From an uncultured Actinomycetes bacterium (GTDB lineage Bacteria; Actinomycetota; Thermoleophilia; RBG-16-64-13), in assembly GCA_963784835.1 (NCBI GenBank), contig CAWASM010000007.1, forward strand, positions 14,694 to 78,693: a stretch of DNA of 64,000 nt. Reading direction: 5' to 3'. The stretch's first letter is position 1, and each line of letters begins with the position of its first letter. The translations under genes and the position numbers were made by a program. Of this stretch, positions 2,774-56,540 are shown piece by piece. The notes below the pieces were generated by a model. That model saw nothing but the letters and a program-made list of their open reading frames with translations. It did no database searches and was not told the DNA's origin.

Positions 2774-2931
2774 CTTGCCCCCGCCCCGTGTCTGTCGAAT
2801 CCGCCTTGCCCGCACCACTGACTATACAATGCCTTCACTCGGTTCCGGTGACGCCGACGCCCCCCGGCCCCGTCGGGTAGACTGATTGCAGAAGACTTAC
2901 TTGAAGAGAACCTCGCAAGAGAGACATCAGC

Positions 2932-4413
2932 ATGGCCCACGTACGCGTACGCTTCGCTCCCAGTCCCACGGGTTCGCTGCACGTGGGCAGCGCCCGCACG
3001 GCGCTCTACAACTTCCTCTACGCCCGCCATCACAGCGGCACCTTGGTGCTGCGCATCGAGGACACCGACCTCAAGCGCTCCACGAGCCACCACGACTCCA
3101 GCATCATCAACGATCTGGCCTGGCTCGGGCTGCAGGCCGACGAAGGTCCCGACATTGGCGGCGACTACGGTCCCTACCGGCAGAGCGAGAGGGCCGACCT
3201 CTACGAGGCCGCCGTGCAGCAGCTGCTCGCCGACGGGTGGGCCTATCCCTGCTTCTGCCCGCAGGAACTGCTCGACGAGCGCAAGGAGCAGCATACTGGC
3301 CGCAGGGCCAGATGCCAAAGTACGACCGCACCTGCAGCTGTCTCACGTCCGACGAGGTGGAGGCGCGGTTCGCCGCCGGCGAGCAGGCCGCCATCCGCTT
3401 CCGCGTGCCCGACGGAGACGTGACCTTCGAGGATCTCATCCACGGGCCCATCACCTTCTCGTCGGACGTCATCGGCGACTTCATCATCAAGCGCACCGAC
3501 GGCGGCTTCTCCTACAACTTCGCGGTGGTGGTCGACGATGCCGGCATGGAGATCACCGACGTCATCCGGGGCGAGGACCACATCACCAACACCGCCCGGC
3601 AGATGATGCTGTTCGCGGCTCTGGGCAAGGCGGCGCCCGCGCTACGGGCACCACTCGCTCATCCTGGCTCCCGACGGCAGCAAGCTCTCCAAGCGGCACG
3701 GAGCCACCTCCATCGGCGACTTTCAGGGACCTGGGCTATCTGTCCGGCGGCCATGGTCAACTACCTGGCCCTCCTGAGCTGGCATCCGGCCGACGAGCGC
3801 GAGAAGTTCAGCCTCGACGAGCTCATCGCAGGAGTTCGAGCTTCGGACGGGTCTCGAAGAGCCCGGCCATCTTCGACATCCAGAAGCTCAACTGGCTGAA
3901 CGGCATCTACATCCGCGAGCTGGCCCCGGCCGAACTCTACGAGCACATCGCGCCCTACCTGGCCGCGGCCGGCATCGAGTTGGCTCCCGTGCAGCGGGAA
4001 GTGGTGGCCGAGGCGGTGCAGGCCAACCTGGTGGTGCTCGGCGACGCACCTCAAGTACGCGGCCGTGTTCATCGACGACGCCGATCCTGCGACCTGCGAG
4101 TGCGCCGACGAGCTGCTGGCTCCCGGCACCGACGCGCTGCTCCGGTCTGGCGACCGAAGCCTTCACGGCGATGCCCACCGAATACCTGCACGGCGACGAG
4201 GCGCGGGAGTCTGCTGCGGGGTCTGGCGGAAGCCGGCAAAGCGGAAGGGATCAAGGGCAAAGCCTTGTATCACCCGTTGCGGGTGGCTCTGAGCGGCCGG
4301 GACGAGGGTCCGGAACTGTTCTATCTGATCGCGGGACTGGGCAAGAGCCGCACTATTTGGCCCGGCTCGGAAGCCGCGGCGCGCTTTCGCGGCCCGCCAA
4401 GGAAGGGGACTGA
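2932..4413 (+). CDS. gltX: glutamate--tRNA ligase, readable only with at least six frame changes
   Basis: [32 protein letters not shown] (HIGH region), [36 protein letters not shown] (KMSKS), [22 protein letters not shown] and [20 protein letters not shown] are spread over all three + frames. The 3' end is approximate. Confidence 0.85.
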
Positions 4414-4415
4414 GC

Positions 4416-5850
<1,435 letters not shown>

Positions 5851-12042: not shown

Positions 12043-12360
12043 ATGAACAACACATCAAAGAGGTATCCAGTTGAAGTGAGGGAGCGAGCCGTCCGCATGG
12101 TCTTCGATCACCAGGACGAGTACGACTCCCAGTGGGCGGCGATCTCCTCGGTCGCGACCAAGTTGGGGATGACGCCCGAGACCCTCCGTAATTGCGTCCG
12201 CCGAGCCGAGATCGATGAAGGCCAGAGGGCGGGTCTCACCACCAGCGAGTGTGAGCGTGTGAAGGAACTCGAAAAGGAGAACCGGGAACTCAGGCGCGCC
12301 GATGAAATCCCAAAAGCAGCGGCCGCTTTCTTCGGGGTGGAGTTCGCGGCCCTTACTTAG
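12043..12360 (+). mobile_element. IS3-family transposase OrfA (HTH) stub without OrfB
   Basis: [13 protein letters not shown]....[52 protein letters not shown] is typical IS3 OrfA. No integrase-core ORF follows. Confidence 0.7.
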
Positions 12361-12564
12361 GTTGCGCAGCAGGTAGAGCTCCCTGGTCTTGAAGAAGTCG
12401 GCGTTTCCGTCGTAGAACGCCTTGAGGTCCTCGATGAACTGGCGCTCGCCCAGCTGGTCAGGGGGGAGTAGACTTCGTCAGAATGAAGCTGATGTGCACG
12501 ATTTGACAAATATTGCACCAAGTGCTACGGTCATCTGGTAGATCAAATAGAGGAACGCGAGTTT

Positions 12565-12650
12565 CGTTTCTTGATAAGGGCAAACCTGCCGTGAGGCGGG
12601 GACGCAAAGCCATCGGACCCATTCGTTGATTATTGGGCAGCCGAGCTCCC
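12565..12650 (+). promoter_or_regulatory. c-di-GMP-I (GEMM-I) riboswitch aptamer
   Basis: AAGGGCAAACC-TGCC-GTGA-GGCG-GGGACGCAAAGCCATCGG at 12576..12617 reproduces the conserved GGCAAAC / GNRA-capped hairpin / GGACGCAAAGCC core. A second hairpin forms from TCGG-ACCCA...TGGG-CAG-CCGA. It lies about 250 nt upstream of the TasA-like gene. Confidence 0.85.
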
Positions 12651-12678
12651 GGGGAAGCGGGAGCGGGCTGCCTTTTTT
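12636..12678 (+). terminator. intrinsic terminator (expression platform of the riboswitch)
   Basis: GGCAGCC(12636-42)/GGCTGCC(12666-72) and GCTCCC(12645-50)/GGGAGC(12659-64) form the stem. A T6 run follows (12673-78). The 5' arm overlaps the 3' arm of aptamer helix P2. Confidence 0.8.
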
Positions 12679-12924
12679 GTTGTGCAGCGATTCCCGAGCT
12701 TAGGTGAATGCGCTGGGCCGAGGACAGGGGCGGGGGCGCTTCGCGAGCGAAAGTGAGGTGGTGCTTTTGGTTTGCACGTGCTGCGTTCGCGTCAACTCTG
12801 AATTTCGCGGCGCACTGCCAGGTACTTCAACGTCATGCACGCGAGCGGACCTAAGAACGCTGAGAGGTCGGACGGAGCGTCCTACGCCCAGCGAAAGCCT
12901 CTCGAAAAGGAAAGAGGAGGGATC

Positions 12925-13650
12925 GTGAAGAAACACTTCAGCAGGCGGTTCAAGGTAAAAGCCCTTGCACTCGGGGTTTCCATCATTCTCGTCGTGGTCC
13001 TCATCGCCATCGCCACCGGGGCGACCGGGGCCTACTTCAGTGACACCAAGAGCGGGACGGTCACCGGTGCCATGGGGACGATCCAGGTGAGCGCGACCGG
13101 GGGAACTGGTGGGAATAATCTCGACTTTAACTGGCCCAACATGTTGCCCGGTGTGCACTACACCACCTCGGTGACCTTCCAGAACAGCGGCAACAACCCG
13201 GAAGACGTCTATCTGAACTTCAACAACCTGACCGCGCTCAGCACGCTCAACACTAAGGGGACGTACGCGTCGGTGCACATCAAGGTCAATGGCACTCCGA
13301 CGTACGCCTATCTGAACCTGAACGACCAGAACTCGAGCGGCTTCCTGCCGCCGCGGCTCTTGCTCGTTTCTAACCTCATACCGAACGCGACCGGGACGAT
13401 GGTCTTCGACTTCGAGTACGCGTCGAAGTTGGCCACCCCGGAACCGGGAGGGGTCTTCAACCTGTATCCCATCTACGACAGCGATTCCTGGTATGAGGCG
13501 CACAGTGGCTACGCCGCGGGATACGGCCAGACCACTGCCCGTTCGGGCATCGACTTCGTAATGGGTCAGCACAACCAAGGTCTGCCGTACCAAATCCTCG
13601 CTACCCAGGTCGGCATATCCCCGGACGACACCGGTGGCTCAGCCGACTAA
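12925..13650 (+). CDS. TasA/camelysin-family secreted protein with SipW-type signal peptide
   Basis: GTG 12925 follows AGGAGG. After the TM segment comes GATGAYFSDTKSGTVTGAMGTIQVS (AYFSD motif), then a beta-rich body with LPG....TF.N.G. Confidence 0.8.
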   Translation: MKKHFSRRFKVKALALGVSIILVVVLIAIATGATGAYFSDTKSGTVTGAMGTIQVSATGGTGGNNLDFNWPNMLPGVHYTTSVTFQNSGNNPEDVYLNFNNLTALSTLNTKGTYASVHIKVNGTPTYAYLNLNDQNSSGFLPPRLLLVSNLIPNATGTMVFDFEYASKLATPEPGGVFNLYPIYDSDSWYEAHSGYAAGYGQTTARSGIDFVMGQHNQGLPYQILATQVGISPDDTGGSAD

Positions 13651-13760: not shown

Positions 13761-14612
13761 GTGAAAACGTCCAGAAGACTTGCACGAACTCTACTTCGGT
13801 GGCTCCTGCCGCTGATGGCCCTGGGCGTCATCGTGTCCGGCGTTCTCTTCCTCACGGGAGTCTTCTCGTACCAGATCTACATCATCCACACCGGCTCCAT
13901 GACTCCCACCATCCCGACCCGAAGCGCGGTCATCGTGCACGAAGGGCCGGTACAAGTCGGGCAGGTCGTGACGTTCCACACCGAGGGGGGCGTGGTCGCC
14001 CACCGGCTGGTCAAGCAGCTCCCTGACGGCACCTACCAGACCAAAGGCGACGCCAACGAGACTGTCGATGTCGGCACGATCGGAGCTTCCCAGATCATCG
14101 GGCCGGTGGTCGCTGCTCCGCGCAACCTCGGCTATTGGCTCGCTTACTTCAAGAGCCAAATAGGTCTCGGCTCACTGGCACTTGGGATTCTCTGTCTCTG
14201 GCTAATGTACTCGGTGCTGGTGGAGTTTGGCGCAGCTGGGGCCGCACGTCGCAGGAGTTGGACGAGACGACCCGGGACGAGAGTTGGAGCTGTGTTGGTG
14301 ATGGCTGGCCTGGCAGTTGTTCTCTTTGCCGGGACCGCCCAGGCCGACTTCGAGGCCCGGGTATCTGGGACGATGCGGGGAACCCTCGACCCATCCTTCG
14401 CCACATCAGACTCCACGACCACCACCGTACTTGATCCTACCGACGTCCCCGAGACGAGCAGCAGCACGACAGCCGGACCGACGACCTCGACCAGCGAGAC
14501 CACCAGCACCGAGCCGACGGAGCTCCCAGCAACCGAGCCCCCGACCACCGCGGCAACGGCTGGGCTGGACACGACGGCAACTGGGACCACGACGACCGAA
14601 GGCTACCAGTGA
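13761..14612 (+). CDS. SipW-type signal peptidase I (S26B) with long C-terminal extension
   Basis: The peptidase core is IIHTGSMTPTIPTRSAVIV....VGQVVTF......AHRLV.....TYQTKGDANETVD. It has a C-terminal TM, followed by a signal-peptide-like segment and a Thr/Ser/Pro-rich tail. Confidence 0.8.
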   Translation: MKTSRRLARTLLRWLLPLMALGVIVSGVLFLTGVFSYQIYIIHTGSMTPTIPTRSAVIVHEGPVQVGQVVTFHTEGGVVAHRLVKQLPDGTYQTKGDANETVDVGTIGASQIIGPVVAAPRNLGYWLAYFKSQIGLGSLALGILCLWLMYSVLVEFGAAGAARRRSWTRRPGTRVGAVLVMAGLAVVLFAGTAQADFEARVSGTMRGTLDPSFATSDSTTTTVLDPTDVPETSSSTTAGPTTSTSETTSTEPTELPATEPPTTAATAGLDTTATGTTTTEGYQ

Positions 14613-14723
14613 TCTAGTGGCTGACCGAGTAGCACAGGCGCTTGGACGTACGTCCGCGCGGCGGGTTGGCTGCCGGGCCCTCCAGTGCTGCCACACAGCC
14701 TCGTCGGTGCTCGGAGTAAGACC

Positions 14724-15548
14724 GTGACGGCCTCAAGGAAGATAGGCCGGGTTGTGATGCATTGGCTTCTGCCGCTCATGGCCCTGGGCATCGTGGTCTC
14801 GGCCGCTCTGTTCGTCACGGGCGTCTTCTCGTACAAGATCTACATCATCCACACGGGCTCCATGACTCCCACCATCCCGACCCGAAGCGCGGTCATCGTG
14901 CACGAAGGGCCGGTACAAGTCGGGCAGGTCGTGACGTTCCACACCCAAGCGGGCGTGGTCACCCACCGGGTGGTCGAGCAGCGACCTGACGGGACCTACA
15001 TCACCAAGGGCGACGCCAACGAGACCGTCGATGTCGGTAGCATTCGCGCTTCACAGATCGTAGGGCCGGTAGTGGCCGCACCGCGCAGATTGGGCTACTG
15101 GATCGCCTACTTCAAGAGCCCGGTCGGTCTCGCCTCGCTGATCATCGCTATCGTTGTCATCTGGCTCCTCTATTCTCTCGTATCGGAGTTCGGGGAGCGG
15201 CGCGCACCGTCCGACCAACCGGCATCGGGGCTCCGAGCAGCGGACGAGGCAGCCAATTCAAGAGCCAACCCCTGTGTGGTGGCAGAAGTCAACACAGGAC
15301 AGTCCATGCAAGACTATGCGCTGGACGCCGTGCCCCGCCGCTGTGCCCGCTATGCTGCCTCGAAGACCACGTCAAGGAGAGCAGCGGGAGACGCGCTGAA
15401 GTCGATGCAAGATGACGTTTGCGATGCCGTGCCCCGCCGCTGTGCCCGCTATGCTGCCTCGAAGACCGAGCTGAGCAGACGCGCCGCCAAGCCAGCCTCC
15501 AAGAGCGGGGACGGAACGACGGCCACGAGTATCCTCTTGGGCGACTGA
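14724..15548 (+). CDS. SipW-type signal peptidase I, tandem paralog
   Basis: The peptidase core is the same as the previous gene, with a 90-nt block identical at DNA level. The C-terminal tail is different and contains a 99-bp direct repeat. Confidence 0.8.
   Translation: MTASRKIGRVVMHWLLPLMALGIVVSAALFVTGVFSYKIYIIHTGSMTPTIPTRSAVIVHEGPVQVGQVVTFHTQAGVVTHRVVEQRPDGTYITKGDANETVDVGSIRASQIVGPVVAAPRRLGYWIAYFKSPVGLASLIIAIVVIWLLYSLVSEFGERRAPSDQPASGLRAADEAANSRANPCVVAEVNTGQSMQDYALDAVPRRCARYAASKTTSRRAAGDALKSMQDDVCDAVPRRCARYAASKTELSRRAAKPASKSGDGTTATSILLGD
15306..15467 (+). repeat. 99-bp-period direct repeat inside the SipW paralog 3' region
   Basis: The two units are 15306..15368 and 15405..15467. They share an identical 42-nt core (15327..15368 = 15426..15467) encoding AVPRRCARYAASKT. 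Confidence 0.9.
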
Positions 15549-15725
15549 TCTTCCGGCCCTGGCTTCAGGCTCGGTTTCCAGCTTTCGATGCCGCAGTCGC
15601 GGCGGTTCGCCTAGCCTCGGCTTAATCACCGGGTTCCCTCTGCCGATACTCTCATGAGGGGCACACGCTTTTGTCTGCATCCATGTGCCTCGTTCGGTTA
15701 CAGACAGGCGGAGAGGAGAGCCACG

Positions 15726-16301
15726 ATGACACGAGGCAAGAAGATGAGGACTCTGCTCGGCAATGTGCTCCTCGGCCTCGTGCTGGTCGCCGCCGCCCTC
15801 TTCGTTGTCAACATGGGTGTTAACGGTCTCGGCACCCTGCCGGGCGGATATCGGCCCTTGGTCGTTCTCTCTGGGAGCATGGAGCCCTACATGCCGACGG
15901 GCAGCCTCGTCTTGACCAAGAGCGTGAACCCTGCAACGGTCAAAGTCGGCGACGTCATCACCTTCCGCCTGAAGACCGGTTCCTTCCAGACCGATTTCGC
16001 CACCCATCGGGTTGAGGCGATAGAGAACGGGCCAACCGGGATGAGTTTCGTCACCAAAGGGGACGCGAACCAGGTCCACGACCTTGTCCCGGTCTCCGCC
16101 ACGGCCCTAGTGGGCAGGGTCGTTCTCATCTCCAGCTTGGCCGGAAGTGTCGTCCAGGCGGTGAAGACGCCTCTGTTCCTCGCTCTCGTCGCGTTTGGAG
16201 CAGTGGCTCTAATGACCAAAGCTCTCTGGAAAAAGGTACCTCGCCGTCTCGCCCGTGAGCGGGCGCCACTGCCCGAGCCTTCCGCCCGCGTCCCCTCTTG
16301 A
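15726..16301 (+). CDS. SipW-type signal peptidase I, third copy (divergent)
   Basis: LVVLSGSMEPYMPTGSLVL....VKVGDVITF.......ATHRV......FVTKGDANQVHD plus a C-terminal TM segment. Of the three copies it is closest to B. subtilis SipW. Confidence 0.85.
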   Translation: MTRGKKMRTLLGNVLLGLVLVAAALFVVNMGVNGLGTLPGGYRPLVVLSGSMEPYMPTGSLVLTKSVNPATVKVGDVITFRLKTGSFQTDFATHRVEAIENGPTGMSFVTKGDANQVHDLVPVSATALVGRVVLISSLAGSVVQAVKTPLFLALVAFGAVALMTKALWKKVPRRLARERAPLPEPSARVPS

Positions 16302-16329: not shown

Positions 16330-17323
16330 CGGCCCTGCTGCCAGAACCCGATCTGTTCCCATACGCCTACGTGCGCCGAGAGGCCGTGCTTTCCAGTCAG
16401 ATCGAGGGAACTCAGTCCTCGCTCTCCGACCTATTGCTCTTTGAACTTGAGGGGGCACCGGGCGCACCCTTCGACGAGGTGGTGGAGGTCTCCAACTACG
16501 TCGCGGCGCTGGAGCATGGGCTTGCTCGCCAGGCCGAAGGTCTTCCGCTGTCCAACGGGCTGATCCGGGAGATTCACGCCCGACTGCTTTCGCGGGGGCG
16601 GAGCATTGGCAAGCAGCCGGGCGAGTTCCGTACCAGCCAGAACTGTATCGGCGGCACTCGACCGGGCAATGCTCAATTTGTTCCGCCGCCCCCGCAGGAG
16701 GTGGAGCCATGCATGGCAGCGCTTGAGCGGTTCATGCATGACCCGATGCGCCGGGGGCTCTCAGCAAAGCCGCCCTTGCCCATGTGCAGTTCGAGTCCAT
16801 TCACCCCTTCGTTGACGACAACGGCCGAGTCGGCAGGCTGCTGATCGCCCTCCTTCTGCATCATGACGGGGTGCTGCGGCAGCCGCTTCTGTACCTGAGT
16901 CTCTATTTCAAACAGAACCGGGCCGAGTACTACCGACTGCTGAACTCCATGCGAGATACGGGTGACTGGGAGGCCTGGTTAGACTTCTTCCTCGAGGGAG
17001 TGCGGGAAACCGCCACAGGCGCGGTCGACACCGCCCACCGATTGCTGGCCATGTTCCAGAAGGATCAGGAACTTGTTCAGGGCTTGGGCCGCGCTGCCGC
17101 CAATACGCTTCGCGTATTCGAAGCCTTACGGCATCGTCCCGTGGGCCATATCGATCATTTGGCGGGGCAGACGGGAATAGCCTATCCCACCGCTGCACGG
17201 GCCGTCGACGCTCTTGTAGGACTCGGGGTGTTGCACGAGCTGACTGCGCGACGGCGCGGGCGCGTATTCGCCTATGACGGGTCTCTGCGGATCCTGAACG
17301 AGGGAGGATCATCGGAGGCGTAA
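16330..17323 (+). pseudogene. Fic-family protein, N-terminally truncated and frameshifted near 16790
   Basis: REAVLSSQIEGTQSS...EIHARLL...PGEFRTSQN is in ORF 16371..16844. HPFVDDNGRVGRLLIALLL... and a winged-helix C-terminus are in ORF 16784..17323. No room is left for a normal N-terminus after the SipW stop at 16301. Confidence 0.7.
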
Positions 17324-19599: not shown

Positions 19600-20241
19600 C
19601 TATTCCGAATACGTGTAGCTCAGCACTGTCTTGCCATTCGGGTCAAGGACGGTCACCGTGTCGCCGTCGTTGTTCCAAATAGCTGACCCGCTGGCGCCCC
19701 AATAAAGGTCGCTTGCGGTGGTGGTGCCGGAGCCCGTGTGTAGGGTGAAGGTGTCACCTGCATCGAAGCTCATGTCGGGGAAGCTGTAGCGATGATTCGC
19801 CGCGTCCTCGACCACGTAGCCTCGAAGGCTGCTCGAGGTGGTCACCCGGAACACGATGTACTCCTCGTTCAGGTTGTTGTTGTCATCATTCCCAGGCGCG
19901 TCGTACTGCAAGGTCACAATCTCGAGCGGTCCTTCCTGCGCTGTCGACGGAGCTTCGGTGGTTGTTGTCGCCTCCGTTGTTGTGACCTTGGCGGTTGTCG
20001 CCGTTGTGGTAGTTCCCACAGGTGCCATCGTTGTCCCTGTGCTTGATTGCGTGGTCGTACTTTTCGCTTTCACCTGAGTGGAAGACGGGCTCATGCTAGT
20101 GCTGGACATCATGGCAAGCGGGTCACCTGTGGTCGGGGGGATTGTCGAGTCGCTGGCGCCACCACAAGCCGCACCGCTGAGGACGGTCAGCACCACCACG
20201 ACTGCTGCGCCATATAGAATCCTGCCGCCCCTGATCATGAT
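19600..20241 (-). CDS. lipoprotein with lamin-tail (LTD) domain
   Basis: The lipobox is LSGAACGG, followed by a Thr/Ser-rich linker. Then comes LEIVTLQYDAPGNDDNNNLNEEYIVFRV......YVVED....YSFP......DTFTLHTG......WNNDGDTVTVLD. Confidence 0.8.
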   Translation of the reverse strand: MMIRGGRILYGAAVVVVLTVLSGAACGGASDSTIPPTTGDPLAMMSSTSMSPSSTQVKAKSTTTQSSTGTTMAPVGTTTTATTAKVTTTEATTTTEAPSTAQEGPLEIVTLQYDAPGNDDNNNLNEEYIVFRVTTSSSLRGYVVEDAANHRYSFPDMSFDAGDTFTLHTGSGTTTASDLYWGASGSAIWNNDGDTVTVLDPNGKTVLSYTYSE

Positions 20242-20278
20242 CCTCTTCCTGCTGGTCTTCTGGCCTATCCCGCTGCCA

Positions 20279-20431
20279 CTACTTGTACTCGTGGTTCTCG
20301 GCAATCTTGTCCTCTGGGTCAAGTACTTTCATCATGTCGCCGTCGTGATCCAAGAAACAGGCGTGAACATACCTGTCACCGACATCGACTCCCACTGTCA
20401 TCTCGTTTTCATGGCCGGTAGCATTGCCCAT
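20279..20431 (-). pseudogene. possible IS110-family transposase N-terminal stub (50 codons)
   Basis: MGNATGHENEMTVGVDVGDRYVHACFLDHDGDMM resembles the VGIDV.K..h.a..ld..G start of IS110 transposases. A stop follows after 50 codons. Confidence 0.3.
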
Positions 20432-32799: not shown

Positions 32800-35227
32800 A
32801 TGATGCGGTCAGTTGTGCGTGACTTAACCAGACCCCGGGAGGGAGTGGTGGGCGTGTGGGCAAACGGGCGGCGTCGGCAGAGACGCTACGAGCAAGCCAA
32901 CGAGACCGAAGCGAAGCGGCGGGCGACAGGCGCCCGCTATTCGCACCTGCTAGGGCGGGCCAATGAAGCGGTCTTTCTGTCCGACGATGACGGCCGCTTC
33001 TTGGAGGTCAACGACAGGGCTCTAGAGATGTATGGGTACAGGCGGGAGGAGTTACTCGGCCTTCGCCTGTGCGACTTGGTGCCGCTCGAAGGACGAGCGA
33101 CTCAGGGCGCTCGGGTACTGGAGGTATTGGAGACAGGCATGCCGATCGCGGAGACCGTGCACATCAAGGCCAACGGAACACATTTTCCGGTGGAGCTGAT
33201 TACGCGGCGGGTCGACATCGACGGCAAGGTCCTTGTCCAATACATCGTTCGTGACATCACCGAGCGCGTCAAGGCGGAGACCGCGCTACAAAAGAAGCTG
33301 GAGGATCTGAGCCGTCTGGCCACGGCGGTGAGCGACTCGAACGATGCGGTCATCCTGCATGATCTCGAAGGAAACATCCTGGCCTGGAACCACGGCGCGA
33401 TAGAGACCTACGGCTACAGTAAGGCCGAGGCGCTGGGCATGAATGTCAGAGACATTGTCACCGATACTTATCGAGAAACGGCCCCGGCGCTGATCGAAGC
33501 AATCGGGCATGGGGAGATCGTCAAACCCTTCGAGCTGCGGCGGGTGACCAAGGATGGCCGGATTCTCGATGTTTGGCTGACCACCACCTTGCTCACCGAT
33601 GACCAAGGAAACCCCGTGGCCGTGGCCACGATCGAACGTGACATCACAGAGCGCAAGCAAGTGGAGGCCTCTCTGCGGCTCACACGCTTCTCTGTGGACC
33701 ACGCGGATGACGGCCTTCTGTGGGTGGACCGCGAGGGGCGGTTCTTCGATGTGAACGATTTCCTGTGCTCTCGGCTTGGCTACTCGCGCGAAGAGCTGTT
33801 GGGCATGAAAGTGTTCGATGTGACTGTCGGTCTTCGGCCCGAAGCTTGGCCGGCTCGTTGGCTTGAGCTGAAAGCGCGCGGATCCTTGACCTTTGAAAAG
33901 CAATACCAAACCAAGAGCGGAGAGACCTTCCCGGCTGAGATAACCTCAACTGTTCTCGATCACGAGGGTCACGAGTATCTCTTCGGCTTCATCCGCGACA
34001 TCACCGGACGCAAGGAGGCGGAGGAGGCGCTGAAAGAGGGCGAGGCACAGCTCCGCCAAGCTCAGAAGATGGAAGCCATCGGCCGGCTGGCGGGCGGAAT
34101 CGCCCACGACTTCAACAATCTGCTCACCGCCATCCTCGGGTACAGCGACCTGATACTAGCTTCGGAGGAATGCGCCGCCGGCTCGCTTCGCGGTGACGTG
34201 GAGGAGATCAAGGCGGCCGGCGAGCGGGGTAGCGCCCTAACTCGGCAGATCCTAGCCTTCTCCCGGCGCGAGGCCCCGCAGCCCGAGGTGCTCTCCCTGA
34301 ACGAGATCCTGATAGATAGTGAGCGCTTCCTGGTCCGCACCCTAGGCGAAGATATCGATTTGGTCACGCTTCCTCATCCCGAGCTGGGTCTAACGGGAGT
34401 GGACCGCCGGCAATTCGAGCAGGTGCTTCTTAATCTGGCGCTAAACGCCCGAGACGCCATGCCGGGTGGGGGCAGGCTCACCCTGGAAACGGCCAACGTC
34501 GAGCTGGACGATGATTACTGCCGGGTGCACGGAGGGACCGAACCCGGCGCCTACGTGATGCTGGCCGTGTCGGATACGGGAACGGGCATGAACGAGGAGA
34601 CCAAGTCTCACGTCTTCGAACCCTTCTTCACCACCAAGGAACCGGGCAAAGGGACGGGGCTAGGCTTAGCCACCCTCTATGTCACAGTCAAGCAGAGCGG
34701 CGGCAGCGTCTTGGTCTACAGCGAGCTCGGGCAGGGCACTACCTTCAAGGTCTACTTACCACGCGTCAACGAGCCGACCAAGGCGCTCGCCGCTGCTGCA
34801 GAAATGCCAGCCTCGCTCATCGGGTGCGAAACCATCCTCGTGGTGGAGGACGAAGTCGCTCTGCGGGTACTGATCAAACGGGTCCTTGAGCATCATGGCT
34901 ATACCATACTGCTGACCGGTAGCAGCGATGAAGCCCTGCGCATTCTGGACGGAGCCAGTCCCCCGGTGGATCTCCTGCTGACTGATGTGGTCCTTGCCGG
35001 AAACCTGCAAGGCGACGAACTTGTCCGGGCAGCCAGAGTCCTCCATCCAGACCTGCCGGCGCTTTACATGTCCGGATACACCCGCAACGCTGCTCATGCG
35101 CTCCGGTCGGCTGGACGAAGGGGTGAACTACCTTGAGAAACCATTCACGCCCGCGGACCTAGCCTGTCGGGTGCGCGAAGTCCTAAACTGTCAGGCTGAT
35201 GCCCAGGAGCGACTCGCGCTCCCGTAG
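32800..35227 (+). CDS. multi-PAS hybrid sensor histidine kinase with receiver domain (frameshift near 35090; start uncertain)
   Basis: At least three PAS units, each ending (V)RDITERK. HisKA is AGGIAHDFNNLLTAILGY; the HATPase part has NLALNARDAM and DTGTGM; REC is ILVVEDE...DLLLTDVVL. The last 45 aa are in the frame of ORF 34985..35227. Confidence 0.85.
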
Positions 35228-47678: not shown

Positions 47679-49140
47679 GTGCTGAAGATGGTCGACGTGG
47701 AGTTCATCAAGAAGAAGCATGAGATCGAGGGCTGGCCGATCCGCAAGATCGCCCGGCAGCTCGAGGTCTCCAGGCAGACGGTGCGCAGGGTGCTGGCCTC
47801 CCCGGCTGAGCCGCCCCGGTATGAGCAGAGGGTTGCTCGTTCGCAACCGGTCATGGGCCCGTATCTCCCGGTCGTCGAGCGCTGGCTCATCGACGACGAG
47901 ACCGCGCCCCGCAAACAGCGTCACACCGCCCATCGCATCTACGACCGCCTGGTGGCTGAATACGACTTCCCCGGATCCGAGGTGACCGTGCGCCGGGCGG
48001 TCCGCGCCCTTCGGGGCCGACGCGTGGAGATGTTCGTGCCCTTGGAAGCGGTGCCGGGCAAGGTGGCCCAAGCTGACTTCGGTCAGGCTCACATGCTGAT
48101 CGCCGGCTGTGTGCAGAAGGTCTTCATCTTTTGCCTGCGGGCCAAGCATTCCAAGGTGCCCTTTGCCGCTGCTTATCCCACCGAGAAGCTGGAAGCCTTT
48201 CTGGATGGTCACGTCCGGGGTCTCGAGTTCTTCGGCGGCATCTTCCGGGAGATCTGGTATGACAACCCCAAGACCGCCGTCACCAAGATCCTTTCTGGGC
48301 CGGAGAGAGTCGAGCACGAACACTTCAGCCGCCTGCGGGCCCACTACCTGTTCGATAGCTCCTTCTGCACCCCCGGAGAGGCTCACGAGAAGGGCTCGGT
48401 GGAGAACCTGGTCGGATACGTGCGCAGAAACGCTCTGGTGCCGGCGTCCAAGCCCTTCGCCAGCCTCGAGGCCCTGAACGCTCACCTACTTGCCTTCTGC
48501 GAGCGGGAACGGGTCCGCCATGCTGAGGCTTGGGCTCTGGAGGAGTCTGCTCTTGGGCCCCTGCCTACCTACCCCTTCCGGGCCGCGACCTCCCGGCCGG
48601 TCTCGGTCTCCAAGACCGCCCTGGTCCGCATCGACCACAATCGCTACTCGGTCCCGGCCGTCCAGGCCGGCCGTCTGCTGCGCGCCGAGCTCTACGCAGA
48701 CAAGGTGGAGATCTATGCCGCCGCCACGCTCGTGGCCACCCATCCCCGCAGCTACCATCGCGACGAAAGCTTCCTGGATCTTGCCCACTATCTTCCTGCC
48801 TTCCAAAGAAAGCCCCGGGCGGCCGGCTGCTGCGCCGCTCTTCATCAGGCCGACCCGGTGTTCATCCGCGCCCGGGACCGTCTGCTCGCCGAACCCGGTG
48901 GATACCGGGTCTTCGCCGAGATCCTCATGCTAGGGCTGCGCTTTGATCTGGAGGTCCTGGCTGAAGCCCTCGGAGAGTGCCTGGCCTCCGGGAGACTCTC
49001 GGTCGAGGGTGTCCGCCAGCATTGTCTCAACCTCACTCACCCGGCGCCGCAGCATGTGGAGGTGCCTGAGTTCTTGGCCCTGCGGCTTCCCCGGCCGGAT
49101 CTTAGCCCGCTACGACACCCTGACGGCGGTGGCCCGATGA
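47679..49140 (+). CDS. istA: IS21 transposase IstA (1-nt indel near 49093)
   Basis: The N-terminal HTH is MVDVEFIKKKHEIEGWPIRKIARQLEVSRQTVRR. The DDE core has QADFG...... and WYDNPKTAV. The expected end, PDLARYDTLTAVAR-TGA (49138..49140), is in the frame of ORF 48943..49140. Confidence 0.85.
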
Positions 49141-49904
49141 ACTCAGAGGTCGTCGCCGCCCAGGTCAAGCTCTTTACCCAGGAACTTAAGATGCCGGGGC
49201 TGCGCACCCATTTCGAGGAGATCGCCCGGGAGGCAAGGAGCAACGGGGAGTCCCACGAAGCCTATCTGGTCGCGTGTCTGCGGGCCGAGATCGAGTCCCG
49301 GCGGGAGCACCGGCTGCAGGATCGCCTAAAACAGGCCCGCTTCCCCCACCGAAAGACGCTCGATGAGTTCGACTTCACCCTGGTCCCCTCCGTCCCCAAG
49401 GAAGAGGTCCTTGGCCTGGCGGGAGCCGAGTTCGTCCGCGCCCGGGAGAACGTCATCCTCTTAGGAGCAAGCGGCACCGGCAAGACACACCTTGCCCAGG
49501 CCATCGGCCATGCCGCCATCTACGCCGGCGCTCGGGTCCGCTTCACGAGCGCGGTCGCGCTGGCTCAAGAACTGCTCGCCGCTCAAGACGAGCATCGGCT
49601 GCCTCGCTATCTTAGGAGCTGGCAGAAGACCGATCTGGCCATCGTCGATGAACTCGGATATCTGGGCCTGGGGCCGGGAGGCCCCTTGCTCTTTCAGTTC
49701 TTCGCCGAGCGCTACGAGAAAGGATCGGTGCTCGTGACCTCCAACCTGGAGTTCTCGCGTTGGAGCGAGGTCTTCGGAGATCCGGTGCTCACCGCGGCCC
49801 TTCTCGATCGACTGACCCACCACAGTCATATCCTGGTGTTCGAAGGGGAGTCCTACCGGTTCCGGGAGAGCCAGAAGCAGAAGACGAGATCTCAGGCGAA
49901 GTGA
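49137..49904 (+). CDS. istB: IS21 helper ATPase IstB
   Basis: ATG 49137 lies in an ATGA overlap with the istA stop. Walker A is LLGASGTGKTHLA and Walker B is LAIVDELGY; also VTSNLEFSRW. Confidence 0.9.
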   Translation: MNSEVVAAQVKLFTQELKMPGLRTHFEEIAREARSNGESHEAYLVACLRAEIESRREHRLQDRLKQARFPHRKTLDEFDFTLVPSVPKEEVLGLAGAEFVRARENVILLGASGTGKTHLAQAIGHAAIYAGARVRFTSAVALAQELLAAQDEHRLPRYLRSWQKTDLAIVDELGYLGLGPGGPLLFQFFAERYEKGSVLVTSNLEFSRWSEVFGDPVLTAALLDRLTHHSHILVFEGESYRFRESQKQKTRSQAK

Positions 49905-50078: not shown

Positions 50079-50363
50079 GTGGCCCACACGCCAGAGTTCA
50101 GGCAGGAAGCCAGTGCGTCTCTACCGGGTGAGTCAGAGGGGCATCAGGTCCTGCGCCGCTCAGCTCGGGATATCGCTCGGCACCCTTCGCGCCTGGGTGC
50201 GCCAGGCCGAAGTCGATGAGGGTCTGCGGGAAGGCCTGACCAGCCCCGAGCGAGCTGAGCTTCTGCGTCTTCGGCGTGAGGTCCGAAGATCCTGGAGGAG
50301 GAGAAGGAGATCCTCCGCAAGGCCGCGCTTTTCTTCGCCAGGGAGACCGATCGGCGCAAATGA
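50079..50363 (+). CDS. IS3 OrfA (HTH + leucine zipper), two frame changes
   Basis: [11 protein letters not shown], then [37 protein letters not shown]...[12 protein letters not shown], then [27 protein letters not shown]. The three pieces lie in three different frames. Confidence 0.7.
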
Positions 50364-51247
50364 AGTTCCGCCTGATCGAAGAAGAGAAGTCGCACCACAC
50401 GATCTCCCGTATGGCCCGCGTGCTTGGTGTGACCGCCGCGGGATACCACGCCTGGAAGAAGCGCCCGCCTTCTGCGCGCCTCCAAGAGGATGATCGCCTG
50501 AAGAGGCTTATCCAAGACGCCCACGAGCGCTCTCAGGGCATCTACGGCGCTCCGCGCATCCACGCGGAGCTTGTGCTGGCTCATGGGGAACACGTGGCGC
50601 GCAAGCGCGTGGCCCGCCTCATGACTGCACTGGGGCTGGAAGGCGTGTCAAGGAGAGGGAAGCGCCGGTCCAAGAAGGCTGAGGCCGAGATGCCGGCCGC
50701 TCCCGATCTCGTTCGTCGTCGCTTCACCGCCGGCGCCCCCAATGAGCTTTGGATCGCCGACATCACCTACGTTCCCACCTGGGAGGGCTGGCTGTTTCTG
50801 GCGGTGGTCATCGACGCTTGCTCCCGCCGCGTCTGCGGCTGGTCCATGCGTGACGACCTCAAGGCCGATCTTGTCGTCGATGCTCTGGGGATGGCCACCA
50901 CTCGCCGACGTCCAGGACCCGGCCTCATCCACCATTCGGACCGCGGGGGCCAATATCGCTCGCTGGCGTTCGGTCGGACCCTACGCGATTCGGGCATCCT
51001 TGCGTCGATGGGTTCACGGGGCGATGCCTTCGATAACGCCGCCTGCGAGAGCTTCATGGCCAGCATCAAGACCGAACTCACGAAGAGGAAGACCTTCAAG
51101 ACGAGAGACGAAGCCAGGCTGGCCGTCTTCTCCTACATCGAGGCCTTCTACAACCCCCAGCGCAGGCATTCAGCCCTCGGATATCTTTCCCCGATCGAAT
51201 ACGAGAAGATGCTCAAGGAGAATTGCATCGAGACTGTCGCGGTCTAA
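50360..51247 (+). CDS. IS3 OrfB integrase-core transposase
   Basis: The core motifs are [39 protein letters not shown] and [17 protein letters not shown] 50360 overlaps the orfA stop. Confidence 0.9.
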
Positions 51248-51330: not shown

Positions 51331-54251
51331 TCAAAGCGCTGTTGACACAAGTTCCGAACCGACGTTGAACCGTTCCCGGAAGGCCGATTGAAGGCGCCGA
51401 TCGGCGGGGTCGGATATGACCACGGGCGAACGGGTGCGACGAGCTTCAGCCACCTGGGGCACCTCGGCGTCGGTGAAGCACGAACCTGCGGCCTCGGAGG
51501 TCGGGTGGACGAATTCGAGGCTCCAGCAGGCGCCAGAAAGAAGCATGACTCCACCTGAGTCGGCCGCAAGGGCACGAGTGGCGCGGTCGAGGACCCTACG
51601 CATTATCTCGGACAGCACCAAGGTCGAGGCTATGGCGGCATTCACCTCGTTAAGAGCAGTGCTCAGTCTGCTGGTTTCCTGCATCCGCGTCATGGCGCGC
51701 GTGAGCTCGTCGACGTCGACGAAGCTGAGCACTGCTCCCTCTATGCGTTTGCCGGCCGTCCTGTACGGTCTCACTCTCACCGAGAAGAAACGCCCGTCTT
51801 CGGTCTGCACGTCGCGGGAGGCCGGAGTGAGCGACGAGAGGGCATCGCGCAGGAATTGGTCGAGATCGGGGATGGATACTCTGAGGGCGATGTCGGTGAT
51901 CGGGCGTCCGACGTCGGATGGGATCATATGCAGTATCTCTTCGGTGCCGGGGGTGAACCGCCGGATGCGAAGATTGTCGTCCAGTATCACGATGGGAAGG
52001 TTCACGCTGGCGAGAATGTTGGAGATGTCGTCAAGGGCAGCGCCCAGCTGGGCGTTGCGTTGCTGCAGTTCGTCGTTGACGGTCGTCAGCTCTTCGTTTA
52101 CGGACTGGAGCTCCTCTTTGGCGGTCTCCAGCTCCTCGTTGGTGCTTTGCAACTCCTCGTTTGTCGATTGCAGCTCCTCGTAAGAGGCTCGGACCTCCTC
52201 CAGGCTCGTATCCTTTTCGTGGAGGACCTCCTGCACGTGCTCCCGGGCCGCCTCGAGCTCCTCGCGCAACACCGCTACTTCGGAGAGTTCCGCCTGCGCG
52301 GTCTCTGCAGTCCTCTCGGCTTGTGGCACCTTCTGCACGCTTGAGTCGCTCTTCTCTCGAAAGACGACGACGAAGTAGGTGCGTCTATCGGAGGCCCTAA
52401 ACGGCATCACTTCGAGATCCAGCCCTGCCCACCCCTGGTCGATCCTCACTCGCACGTTCTCTTTGCGGACGGACGCAAAGGTCTCGCGGGCCGTCTCGAG
52501 CGCCTTGCGCAGGTCGTGCGCCAGCCCTTCGCGGGCCAGCAGGAAGAGATCGAAGGAGGCCTTACCCGAGTGGTGTTCAAGATAGGCGGCGGTCGAGCCT
52601 CGGAAGGCGATGACTTCCATGTCTTCGTTGACGAGGACGCTCGAGGAGGCATACGCGGACGCCACAGCCCGATCGGCTTCGCGCTGGGCGTCGAACGAGT
52701 CAAGGCTGGTGCCCACCTCCCCCTCGGGCGCGGTTTGGACGGGAGTGTCGGTCACACGGCCGGCAGACGGTCTGGAGAAGACGATGGGCTGCTCTGCCGG
52801 AGCGGGCTGCTTCTTGTAGGCATGATGAGTCTTGTCGACGAGCCGAAACAGATTCGCCTGCCGGGCGATCGTCTCCGAACGGCCCAAGAGAAGGAACCCG
52901 TCGAGGCGTAACGCATAATGAAAGATCTTTACCGCTCGCTCCTGCAGGGTCCGCTCGAAATAGATCAGCAAGTTTCGGCAGCTGATGAAATCGAGATTCG
53001 AGAAGGGGGGATCGCGGGTGACGTCATGCCGGGCATAGGTGCAGAGGTGGCGCACATTCTCGTTGACACGGTAGCCCCCGTTCTCCGGGACGAAGAAACG
53101 AGCGAGCCGTTCAGGAGAGACCTCAGAGACGATCTCCGCCGGGTAGTAGCCCGCCCGAGCAATCGCGATGTCACGCTCGTTGATGTCGGTTGCAAAGATG
53201 CGGGTAGGCGGAAGGGGCCCATTGGCGGACTCAAGGAGAGCAATGGCCACACTGTACGCCTCTTCCCGGTGGAACAGCCGGCGACCCAGAACCGCAGTCC
53301 CTCCTCTCTCGCCTCTCGCCCGAGTATCTCGGGGAAGACCTCCTCCTTCAGGAAGTCAAAGGTCTCCGGATCGCGGAAGAACTCGGTGACCCCGATGAGG
53401 AGCTCGTGGTAGAGCGCTTCGACCTCGCCCGGTTCCTTTCTCGCGTAACTCAGATAGTCCTCAAGGTTATCTAGTTTGTGAACCAACATCCGGCGGGCGA
53501 GACGGCGCCTGAAGGTGGCGTGCTTGTAGCCACTGAAGTCTTGGCCGCTGACCTGGCGGAGAAGGAGAAACAGGTGGCCAAGAAGGTCTTCCTCGTCTGA
53601 GCCCTGCGGCCTGGTCCCTGGCTCGGCCCTCATGTGCGGATGGCGGGCAATCCTAAGTAATTCGTGGGCGATGCCCTTGGGGGGAAGAACGAAATCAACC
53701 GCGCCCGTCTCGTGGGCGTGCCGCGGCATTTCCGGATAACTCGCAGATTCGGGTTCTTGGGCGAAGGTGACTCCTCCCACGGCCCTGATCGCCACTAGGC
53801 CGCTCGACCCGTCGGAGCCCGTCCCTGAAAGAACGACACCGATAGCTCTCTGCTTGAGATCCTTGGCCAGCAGACGAAAGAAGTGGTCGATGGGCAAGTG
53901 GGCCGCCCCTGGATCCTTATCTCGGGGAACAAGCCGCAGGGTACCGCCCGCCACGGCGAGGTCGGCGGACCCGGGCATCACATAGACATGCCCAGGCTCC
54001 AAGCGAATGCCTTCCAGGGCTTCAAGGACGGGCATGCTCGTGGAACGGCCAAGTATCTCGGCCAGAAAGCTCTTCGTGCTTTCGCTCAGGTGCTGGATCA
54101 CAACAAACGCCATGCCGGTATCGCCCGACAGGCCGCCGAACAACTCTCGAAGAGCCTCGAGCCCCCCTGCGGATGCTCCGATGGCAACTATGGGGAACGC
54201 TCCCAGAGCCGACTTTCTTCTGTGGACAGGCTTGTCGGGGGTGGCGGTCAT
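51331..54251 (-). CDS. CheB methylesterase-CheR methyltransferase-PAS-coiled-coil-PAS-GAF fusion, frameshift near 53255, C-terminus cut at the IS3 end
   Basis: CheB: FPIVAIGASAGGLEAL...VVIQH...GVVLSGTGSDGS. CheR: TEFFRD...LRFWVAGCSTG / EEAYSVAI..., ISCRNLLIYF. The Glu/Leu heptad region is at 52000-52330. The partial GAF ends 3 nt from IS3. Confidence 0.85.
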
Positions 54252-55387: not shown

Positions 55388-56540
55388 GTGGACTCACTCG
55401 ACAAGGACTACGCAGCGGGGCTCTTCCGGGGCTGTGAACCCCCCTGCCTCTCGCTCTACCAGCCGACTCATCGGCACCGTCCGGAAAACCAGCAGGATCC
55501 GATCCGGTTCGGGAACCTCGTGAAGGTACTAGAGGAATCGCTGCTGCAGAAGTATCCGAAGCGTGAGATCCAGACGCTCTTGGACCCCGTTCCTGGCATT
55601 GGCGGAAGACCGCGACTTCTGGGAGCATACCCTTGACGGACTGGCAGTGCTGGGGCGCAGAGGCGTGTTTCGAGTCTACAGGCTCCAGCGGCCGGTTGCC
55701 GAGTTGGCCGTCGTGGCCGATAGCTTCCACACGAAGCCTCTGCTGCGCATGCTTCAGTCGGCCGACCGCTACCAAGTCCTCGGCCTGAGCCGACAGGAGA
55801 TCAAGCTCTTCGAGGGTAACCGTGACTCCTTGGATGAGATCGAGCCGGCCCCCGGTGTCCCGCGGACGATCACCGAGGCGCTGGGGGGGGAATTGACCGA
55901 GCCACACCAGACCGTCGCCTCATACGGCGGCGTCGGCGGGTCGCACTCGGCCATGCACCATGGCCACGGTGGGAAGGAGTCTGAGGTGGACATCGACGCG
56001 GAACGCTTCTTCCGCGCCGTCGACCGTGGGATCCTGGAGCACCACTCCCGGCCATCGGCCCTTCCGCTGATCTTGGCGACGTTGCCGGAACATCGTCAGC
56101 TGTTCCACCAAGTCAGCCATAACCCGTTCCTGATGGACGAAGGCATCGATATCTACCCGGACGCCCTGCCTAGCGACGAACTCCGCCAGCGGGCCTGGCA
56201 GGTCATCGAGCCTCACTACCTGGAACGGCTGGACGCGCTGATCGAGGAGTTCGGCAGAGCAAAGGCCAAGGATCTCGGCGAGGAAGATGTGGCGCGCGTC
56301 GCCAAAGCGGTCGTTGCCGGGCGGGTCGCGACCCTGCTCATCGAAGCCGACCGCGAGATTCCCGGCCGGATCGACGCTGCGACCGGCGACATCGAGTTTG
56401 GGGACTTGGCGGACCCGGAGGTTGATGAGGTGCTCGACGACCTGGGGGAGTTGACCCTGAAGATGGGCGGACAGGTCGTAGTCGTCCCCACCGAGCGGAT
56501 GCCGACCAAGACGGGAATAGCCGCGATCTACCGCTACTAA
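55388..56540 (+). CDS. eRF1/Pelota-like protein (bacterial baeRF-type), frameshift near 55600
   Basis: N-terminus: CLSLYQPTHRHRPENQQDPIRFGNL. Middle domain: HGHGGKESEVDIDAERFFRAVDRGI, compared with eRF1 HGRGGQS...R....F.rkV. C-terminus: AVVAGRVATLLIE. Confidence 0.65.

Follow-up and report, generated by a model that had tools for sequence, protein, structure and literature searches.

A probable class I cyclic-di-GMP riboswitch with an overlapping terminator precedes a TasA-like/SipW operon in an uncultured actinobacterium

The stretch analysed here, hereafter the window, comprises 64,000 nucleotides of an uncultured bacterium of the Thermoleophilia, phylum Actinomycetota (positions 14,694 to 78,693 of contig CAWASM010000007.1, assembly GCA_963784835.1). 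At 12567-12656 of its plus strand lies an RNA element that, judged by its sequence, is a genuine class I cyclic di-guanosine monophosphate (c-di-GMP) riboswitch of the canonical family. We propose, with a probability of roughly 0.78, that it is a transcriptional ON switch for the operon that follows, in which a gene for a TasA-like fibre subunit precedes three for SipW-type signal peptidases. We infer ligand binding, termination and regulation from sequence and computed folds. Positions are those of the window, and features lie on the plus strand unless a minus sign is given.

The aptamer

We compared both strands of the whole window with the 4,227 families of Rfam 15 using cmscan. Apart from a transfer RNA, the only match was to the c-di-GMP-I family (RF01051), also known as GEMM-I. 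It covers 12569-12653 and the full length of the model (positions 1-87) with 55.5 bits (E = 3.9e-8), against a gathering score of 35 bits. The initial annotation of this DNA, made from the letters alone, had called a c-di-GMP-I riboswitch here and named this covariance scan as its check; the call passes the scan, and its coordinates stand. The limits of the aptamer (12567-12656) rest on the RF01051 score, on the closing helix P1 and on the minimum free energy (MFE) fold. P1 has 7 base pairs (12567-73 with 12650-56) and is recovered both in the alignment to the related model RF03167 and by free folding. Folded without constraints, 12560-12656 adopts the complete aptamer structure as its MFE fold (-27.7 kcal/mol).

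The first hairpin (12580-12605) carries the GEMM-I core in the order GC / AAA / CCUGCC-GUGA-GGCGGG / GAC / GC. It consists of a 2-base-pair stem (12580-81 with 12604-05), an AAA internal loop (12582-84) and a 6-base-pair stem (CCUGCC with GGCGGG, 12585-90 with 12595-12600) capped by GUGA, which is the GNRA-capped hairpin that had been recognised by eye. An AAA linker (12606-08), as expected for the class, joins it to the second and less conserved hairpin, P3 (12608-12647). All the descriptive features given for GEMM RNAs by Weinberg et al. 2007 (PMC1950547) are found in the window sequence. The GUGA tetraloop belongs to the GYRA type, for which these authors expect no receptor (PMC1950547), and the window has none. 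The aptamer sits 269 nucleotides 5' of the GTG start codon at 12925, on the same strand and with no conserved open reading frame (ORF) in between.

The predicted terminator and direction of the switch

The 3' end of the aptamer overlaps a predicted intrinsic terminator (12635-12678), a bulged, GC-rich hairpin of 15 base pairs followed by six uridines. The hairpin (12635-12673) reads GGGCAGCC-GA-GCUCCCG / GGGAAG / CGGGAGC-G-GGCUGCC(U), with the uridines at 12673-78. It has a computed energy of -31.9 kcal/mol on its own, has the features expected of an intrinsic terminator, and is the MFE fold of 12560-12685. Its 5' arm (12635-12651) overlaps the 3' strands of both P3 (12636-12647) and P1 (12650-12656). 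In the full leader the terminator fold reaches -49.6 kcal/mol, compared with -34.2 kcal/mol when the aptamer pairs are enforced. A pattern-based terminator scan did not list this terminator at 12635-12678; we think that it was missed because the stem is bulged, so that the inner stem does not directly precede the T run.

We found no separate anti-terminator element between the aptamer and the terminator. Because the terminator shares the 3' strands of the aptamer and no anti-terminator intervenes, ligand-stabilised folding can only prevent termination, and the predicted switch is therefore of the ON type. Both the overlap and the ON direction had been predicted by the initial annotation; the first agrees with the MFE hairpin and its shared 5' arm, the second with nascent RNA (12560-12656) that folds as an aptamer and a full leader that folds as a terminator. 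OFF switches and translational switches both exist among c-di-GMP riboswitches (PMC6366702), but this direct sharing of nucleotides with the aptamer, and a Shine-Dalgarno sequence that lies 260 nucleotides downstream of it, make either kind scarcely credible here.

The mechanism we propose for the ON switch is as follows. Transcription would start near 12539 from a TTGACA-17-TACGGT promoter, and the nascent RNA (12567-12656) is computed to fold into the three-helix GEMM-I aptamer. Bound c-di-GMP, contacted by G12579, A12606 and C12649, would keep P1 and P3 closed. The closed helices would hold 12636-12656, leaving the 5' arm of the terminator unavailable and letting the polymerase read through. 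When no ligand is bound, the computed fold has the 3' arm (12658-12673) displacing P3 and P1 and the hairpin formed in front of the six uridines, and transcription would stop at about 12678. High c-di-GMP would then yield more fibre protein and more of the peptidases that would process its unusual signal peptide.

Ligand-contact positions and variant families

The positions corresponding to three ligand-binding nucleotides of the Vc2 RNA (G20, A47 and C92) are all canonical in the window by alignment, that of C92 by alignment alone. The equivalent of G20 is a G at 12579 (position 11 of the RF01051 model). That of A47, in the alignments to both RF01051 and RF03167, is the A at 12606, which follows the GC pair and opens the AAA linker. 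In the RF03167 alignment P3 and P1 are separated by a junction of two bases, and the second of these, at 12649, is the probable equivalent of C92. The G at 12579 precedes the A47 equivalent by 27 nucleotides, a spacing that is presumably the same in Vc2. We take A47 of Vc2 to stack between the two bases of the ligand. G20 contacts the first guanine of the ligand (G-alpha), and C92 pairs with the second (G-beta) (PMC6140456).

When thresholds are relaxed, RF03167, the c-di-GMP-I-GGC variant, overtakes RF01051 as the highest-scoring model of the clan, with 58.9 bits, just below its gathering score of 59 bits. This raises the possibility that the RNA belongs to the variant family and perhaps responds to a different ligand. 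The base that separates the two consensus sequences is the one after CGC, at the A47 position: the RF03167 consensus (GACGCGAAG) has a G there, which we take, from the consensus and the name, to be the nucleotide that gives the -GGC family its name, whereas the window (GACGCAAAG) has an A. We filed the RNA under the canonical family because of this A, and regard membership in the variant family as very improbable. RF03167 may score higher, we guess, owing to shared stems rich in G and C, a short P3 and the inclusion of the P1 helix in that model alone. The mark of the GEMM-Ib subgroup, an A in place of G20, is likewise missing from the window, which has a G at 12579.

The operon

The first gene downstream (12925-13650) encodes a secreted protein of 241 residues resembling TasA and camelysin. 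It matches Pfam PF12389 (Peptidase_M73) over profile positions 6-108 of 196, with 24.6 bits (E = 2.6e-5; cut-off 22.5 bits). The GTG at 12925 is its most likely start codon because homologues share that start, and a Shine-Dalgarno-like GGAGGG (12916-12921, seen in the sequence and the alignment) ends 3 nucleotides before it. The N-terminus of the protein is a membrane-spanning signal that ends in GATGAYFSD, a motif that varies little or not at all among 30 homologues.

Three genes for SipW-type (archaeal/ER-type) signal peptidases I follow directly on the same strand, and a SipW-like gene lies 3' of the TasA-like homologue in nearly all related loci. Paralogue 1 (13761-14612) scores 51.1 bits with TIGR02228, just under the cut-off of 51.85 bits, and is also matched by the SipW model (E = 4.9e-13) and by Pfam Peptidase_S26 (24.6 bits). 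Paralogue 2 (14685-15548, probable start 14724) and paralogue 3 (15654-16301, probable start 15726) reach 61.4 and 91.0 bits with TIGR02228, and they too are matched by the SipW model. By eye, all three have the motifs GSM(T/E)P, HR(L/V) and KGDAN. Thus the gene content that the initial annotation had read from the sequence, a TasA/camelysin-like protein followed by SipW-type peptidases, is borne out by the profiles.

The C-terminal part of paralogue 1 (about 14290-14612) comprises a membrane segment, the sequence AQADFEARVSGTMRGTL and a tail rich in Thr and Pro, and is conserved in one of the orthologous lineages described below (lineage A). The sequence AQADFEARVSGTMRGTL resembles AYFSDTKSGTVTG in the N-terminus of the TasA-like protein. 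One might speculate that this extension, as a fused part of the peptidase, anchors or nucleates the fibre.

Orthologous leaders and the possibility of another ligand

Orthologous loci were found in two lineages of metagenomic contigs: lineage A (L037-L040 and L049) and lineage B (L044 and L048). Their TasA-like proteins are, respectively, 59% and 54% identical to that of the window. Scanning metagenomes for a 22-mer of the aptamer hit just two contigs, both inside these lineages. Lineage A has the orthologous four-gene operon, with identities of 59%, 63-70%, 65% and 80% for genes 1 to 4; the start of its gene 3 aligns with residue 14 of paralogue 2, and that of gene 4 with residue 25 of paralogue 3. 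Both lineages keep the TTGACA -35 element with a -10 element at 17 nucleotides, the aptamer (57.1-57.3 bits with RF01051), the overlapping terminator, which ends in a U-rich tail, and some 250 nucleotides of leader.

The differences among the orthologues agree with the proposed structures. One pair of P1 changes from U-A to C-G, which is compensatory, and one of the first hairpin from U-G to C-G. A change of the C at 12646 to U leaves the base paired in P3 (G-U) as well as in the terminator (U-G). Across the four distinct orthologous sequences, 95.8% of the cells of the aptamer pairing are paired, compared with 36-57% when the partners are slid.

The aptamers of both lineages have an A at the position of G20 (AAGAGCAAACC), where the window has a G. 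They lie at L037 603-688, L039 1582-1667, L044 134-218, L048 1300-1384 (-) and L049 about 470-560. The orthologous leaders may thus differ in ligand specificity, and the difference at position 20 offers a natural experiment on it. An A at this position occurs in riboswitches for cyclic GMP-AMP (3',3'-cGAMP), and the G20A mutant of Vc2 is bispecific (PMC6140456), so the natural ligand might be cGAMP, or both dinucleotides, instead of c-di-GMP alone. This explanation suits the relatives rather than the window, which has a G at 12579: wild-type Vc2, with G20, binds cGAMP at only about 10 uM compared with picomolar c-di-GMP (PMC6140456). For the window RNA we consider it improbable and keep c-di-GMP as the predicted ligand. 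The organisms of the window and of the two lineages have, to our knowledge, no known cGAMP synthase.

Putative promoter and conserved leader

The promoter proposed above consists of a -35-like TTGACA (12503-12508), invariant in the three lineages, and a -10-like TACGGT (12526-12531) 17 nucleotides after it; at the -10 site, equally spaced, the orthologues read CACAGT or TACATT. A sigma-70 scanner made no call at 12503-12531 because the -10 element matches at only three of the six positions. From their sequence and conservation, the two hexamers probably act as the promoter.

Between the terminator and the start codon lies a non-coding leader of 247 nucleotides (12679-12924) that is conserved in the alignment with both lineages. 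Between the promoter and the start codon, 436 bases align with lineage A at 83% identity, as against 70% for the coding sequence. Single-base indels among the three lineages mean that the leader has no conserved reading frame, and we rejected on this ground a peptide-coding leader such as the 74-residue ORF at 12704-12928. Searching 12350-13000 for a decayed c-di-GMP-II-GAG motif or another Rfam family returned only noise at E <= 10. The terminator scan listed a feature at 12737-12773: a conserved hairpin of 8 base pairs, the loop of which is GAGCGAAA, with a U-rich stretch after it. The pairs of the hairpin (12737-12760) are kept in lineages A and B through changes from U-G to C-G and from G-U to G-C. 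We rejected it as a second conserved terminator, the U-rich tail being absent in lineage B (GGUGCCACUGGGGUC). The leader could nevertheless add regulation, and may be a second regulatory RNA of a novel kind.

Evidence against the proposed switch

Several observations weigh against the proposal that c-di-GMP switches on a TasA-like fibre operon. As regards the aptamer, P3 has two mismatched positions in the RF01051 alignment, and a covariation test did not help: 110 of 500 shuffles do as well, and the test has no power because only four distinct sequences are available. As regards the signal, no GGDEF, EAL or HD-GYP domain turned up when about 30 of the larger window ORFs were compared with Pfam, and production of c-di-GMP by the host is an assumption of the model. 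As regards the first gene, the PF12389 score barely exceeds its cut-off, and the NCBIfam TasA equivalog model gives only 17.6 bits (cut-off 450 bits). The AlphaFold model of the protein (mean pLDDT 69.7), built on the alignment of homologues, has the TasA fibre 8AUR as its best match in the PDB (E = 5.5e-4, probability 1.00), with a Foldseek TM score of only 0.31. Because of the low equivalog score, we regard the protein as a family member and not as a TasA orthologue; in sequence it is most likely a remote member of the TasA family.

Finally, the conserved leader, with its terminator-like hairpin, lies 3' of the main terminator. The aptamer might then bind c-di-GMP while the operon remains unresponsive, being dominated by a second, ligand-independent block at 12737-12760 or by a binding site for a protein or an RNA. 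The leader is indeed more conserved than the coding sequence, the pairs of the hairpin listed by the scan are conserved, and there is a precedent in Bc1 of Bacillus thuringiensis, in which a second terminator masks the response to c-di-GMP (PMC11218506). On the other side, the loss of the U-rich tail in lineage B means that the second hairpin is not a conserved terminator, and the fact that all three lineages keep both the first terminator and the nucleotides it shares with the aptamer argues for selection on the switch. We judge an unresponsive operon to be unlikely, though it is the most serious of these alternatives, and retain the ON switch as our preferred explanation.

A second aptamer class upstream of distant TasA-like/SipW operons

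We extended the comparison to 35 genome loci with more distant TasA-like homologues (28-48% identical over the segment that aligns best), mostly of Actinomycetota (Solirubrobacterales, Acidimicrobiia, Microbacteriaceae and others). An Rfam scan found no class I aptamer in these 35 loci, and a regular-expression search of 36 genome loci found no GEMM-I core upstream of the homologues. Instead, 12 of the 35 (L009, L013, L017-L020, L022, L023, L026, L027, L031 and L033) have a c-di-GMP-II-GAG motif (RF03169), with 42.5-56.5 bits against a gathering score of 40 bits. The motifs lie at about 3520-3980 of each locus, on the same strand as the homologue and 25-400 nucleotides upstream of it, and in all 12 a SipW-like gene directly follows the TasA-like gene.

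The II-GAG motif thus occupies the same site as the window aptamer, directly 5' of homologous operons, but it has an unrelated fold, and its distance from the aligned gene start is often too short for a terminator. That two unrelated aptamer folds occupy the same position gives independent support to the control of this operon type by cyclic dinucleotides. The operon is preceded by class I in the clade of the window, and by II-GAG in Solirubrobacterales and Acidimicrobiia; among the class I members, position 20, which determines specificity, is a G in the window and an A in the two sister lineages. A broader and tentative idea, to which we give considerably less credence than to the ON switch itself, is that the TasA-like/SipW operons of uncultured Actinomycetota are a regulon that has repeatedly been placed under cyclic-dinucleotide riboswitches of unrelated folds, and that orthologous operons may answer c-di-GMP in one organism and cGAMP, or both, in another. 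We found no ligand for c-di-GMP-II-GAG in the searchable literature. The gene context described here provides a concrete candidate ligand for this variant.

Five TasA-like loci without an Rfam riboswitch match have in common a G-rich leader motif (GAGGGGGGAUGCG... / GACGGGGGGUGAGG... / GACCAGGGGGUGAGG...) 100-150 nucleotides 5' of the start codon (L021 about 3850-3900, L046 about 1235-1295, L041 about 1530-1580, L043 about 3890-3940 and L011 about 3830-3860). Possibly this motif is a leader element of a third kind, as yet undescribed, for the TasA-like gene family.

Genomic surroundings

The window and the orthologous contigs are homologous only from about 12494 onwards, and we conclude for this reason that the upstream neighbourhood has been rearranged. 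A fragment of an IS3-family OrfA (12043-12360; 105 residues, HTH_Tnp_1 domain) lies directly 5' of the riboswitch promoter, and beside it, at about 12361-12470, is what appears by eye to be the tail of a truncated minus-strand gene. Further mobile elements are found at 47679-49904 and 50276-51247: an IS21-like transposase with its IstB helper as one ORF of 741 residues, and an ORF with an IS3-type integrase core.

The regions 2886-4429, 4416-5591 and 16371-17323 concern three other genes. The gene gltX is split over two overlapping frames, and a Fic-family gene over two ORFs. The product of cysS has 391 residues, compared with about 470 in homologues, the last 17% being unaligned; its best named matches are metagenome-assembled genomes labelled Actinobacteria or Thermoleophilia (72-77% identity), which, with the names of the TasA-like homologues, point to a host among the Actinomycetota. 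The three are either pseudogenes or results of indel errors in the assembly. The assembly may contain such errors; the riboswitch region agrees with independent contigs.

Three kilobases downstream of the operon, the product of a gene at 19600-20322 (-) is a secreted protein that is rich in Thr and has a lamin-tail domain (LTD, 57.8 bits). Elsewhere (51331-54251 (-), 55563-56540 (+) and 32800-35136 (+)), the window encodes a CheB-CheR fusion adjoining a CheR-PAS protein, a bacterial eRF1-like protein (baeRF family 3) and a triple-PAS hybrid histidine kinase.

Comparison with known systems

The signal c-di-GMP is the classic one for the switch to surface-attached life; through an RNA, the locus would place the gene for a matrix fibre of TasA type, and those for the peptidases that process it, directly under that signal. 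A link between a c-di-GMP riboswitch and TasA, camelysin or SipW is described neither in the searchable literature nor in the GEMM gene table of 2007 (PMC1950547). The pairing would strike a specialist as plausible rather than surprising, since c-di-GMP-dependent ON switches before adhesins and pilus subunits are already established (PMC4933901, PMC6366702). Its practical value is modest: a predicted c-di-GMP sensor with its output gene for an uncultured actinobacterial group.

The closest precedents are the GEMM RNAs themselves. In 78 of the 322 RNAs of Weinberg et al. 2007 (PMC1950547) the second hairpin has a terminator overlapping its 3' side, and these authors predict that more ligand leads to more expression. 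The window RNA resembles them in its aptamer fold, core sequence, GYRA-type tetraloop without receptor, terminator overlap and ON model. It differs in its host, as the Actinomycetota are not named in the distribution of 2007, in its genes, as TasA-like and SipW are not in the table of that study, and in its additional conserved leader of 247 nucleotides.

Two other riboswitches are similar in their output. Bc2 of B. thuringiensis, upstream of the collagen adhesion protein gene cap, is also a class I ON switch for a surface or adhesion protein and has been shown experimentally to act by preventing termination (PMC4933901). It differs from the window RNA, which is known from its sequence, in phylum, regulated gene and expression-platform sequence. 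With Cdi-2-4, upstream of pilA1 in Clostridioides difficile, c-di-GMP likewise favours read-through into the gene for the major subunit of an extracellular filament, but this aptamer is of class II and the filament is a type IV pilus instead of a TasA-like fibre (PMC6366702). The GEMM-Ib riboswitches for 3',3'-cGAMP, such as Gs1761 of Geobacter (PMC6140456), have the same fold, and the RNAs of lineages A and B resemble them in their A at position 20, whereas the window RNA has G20.

The operon of the window also differs from its best-known counterpart in having three SipW paralogues, no recognisable TapA and a reversed gene order. That counterpart is tapA-sipW-tasA of Bacillus subtilis, where a fibre subunit of the TasA family likewise shares an operon with its own SipW-type peptidase, but which is controlled by the protein repressors SinR and AbrB and is not known to be under a riboswitch. 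Taken against these systems, the aptamer family and the ON architecture of the window RNA are already known, even textbook, and not a new design; what is new is limited to the controlled gene, the phylum and the comparative pattern.

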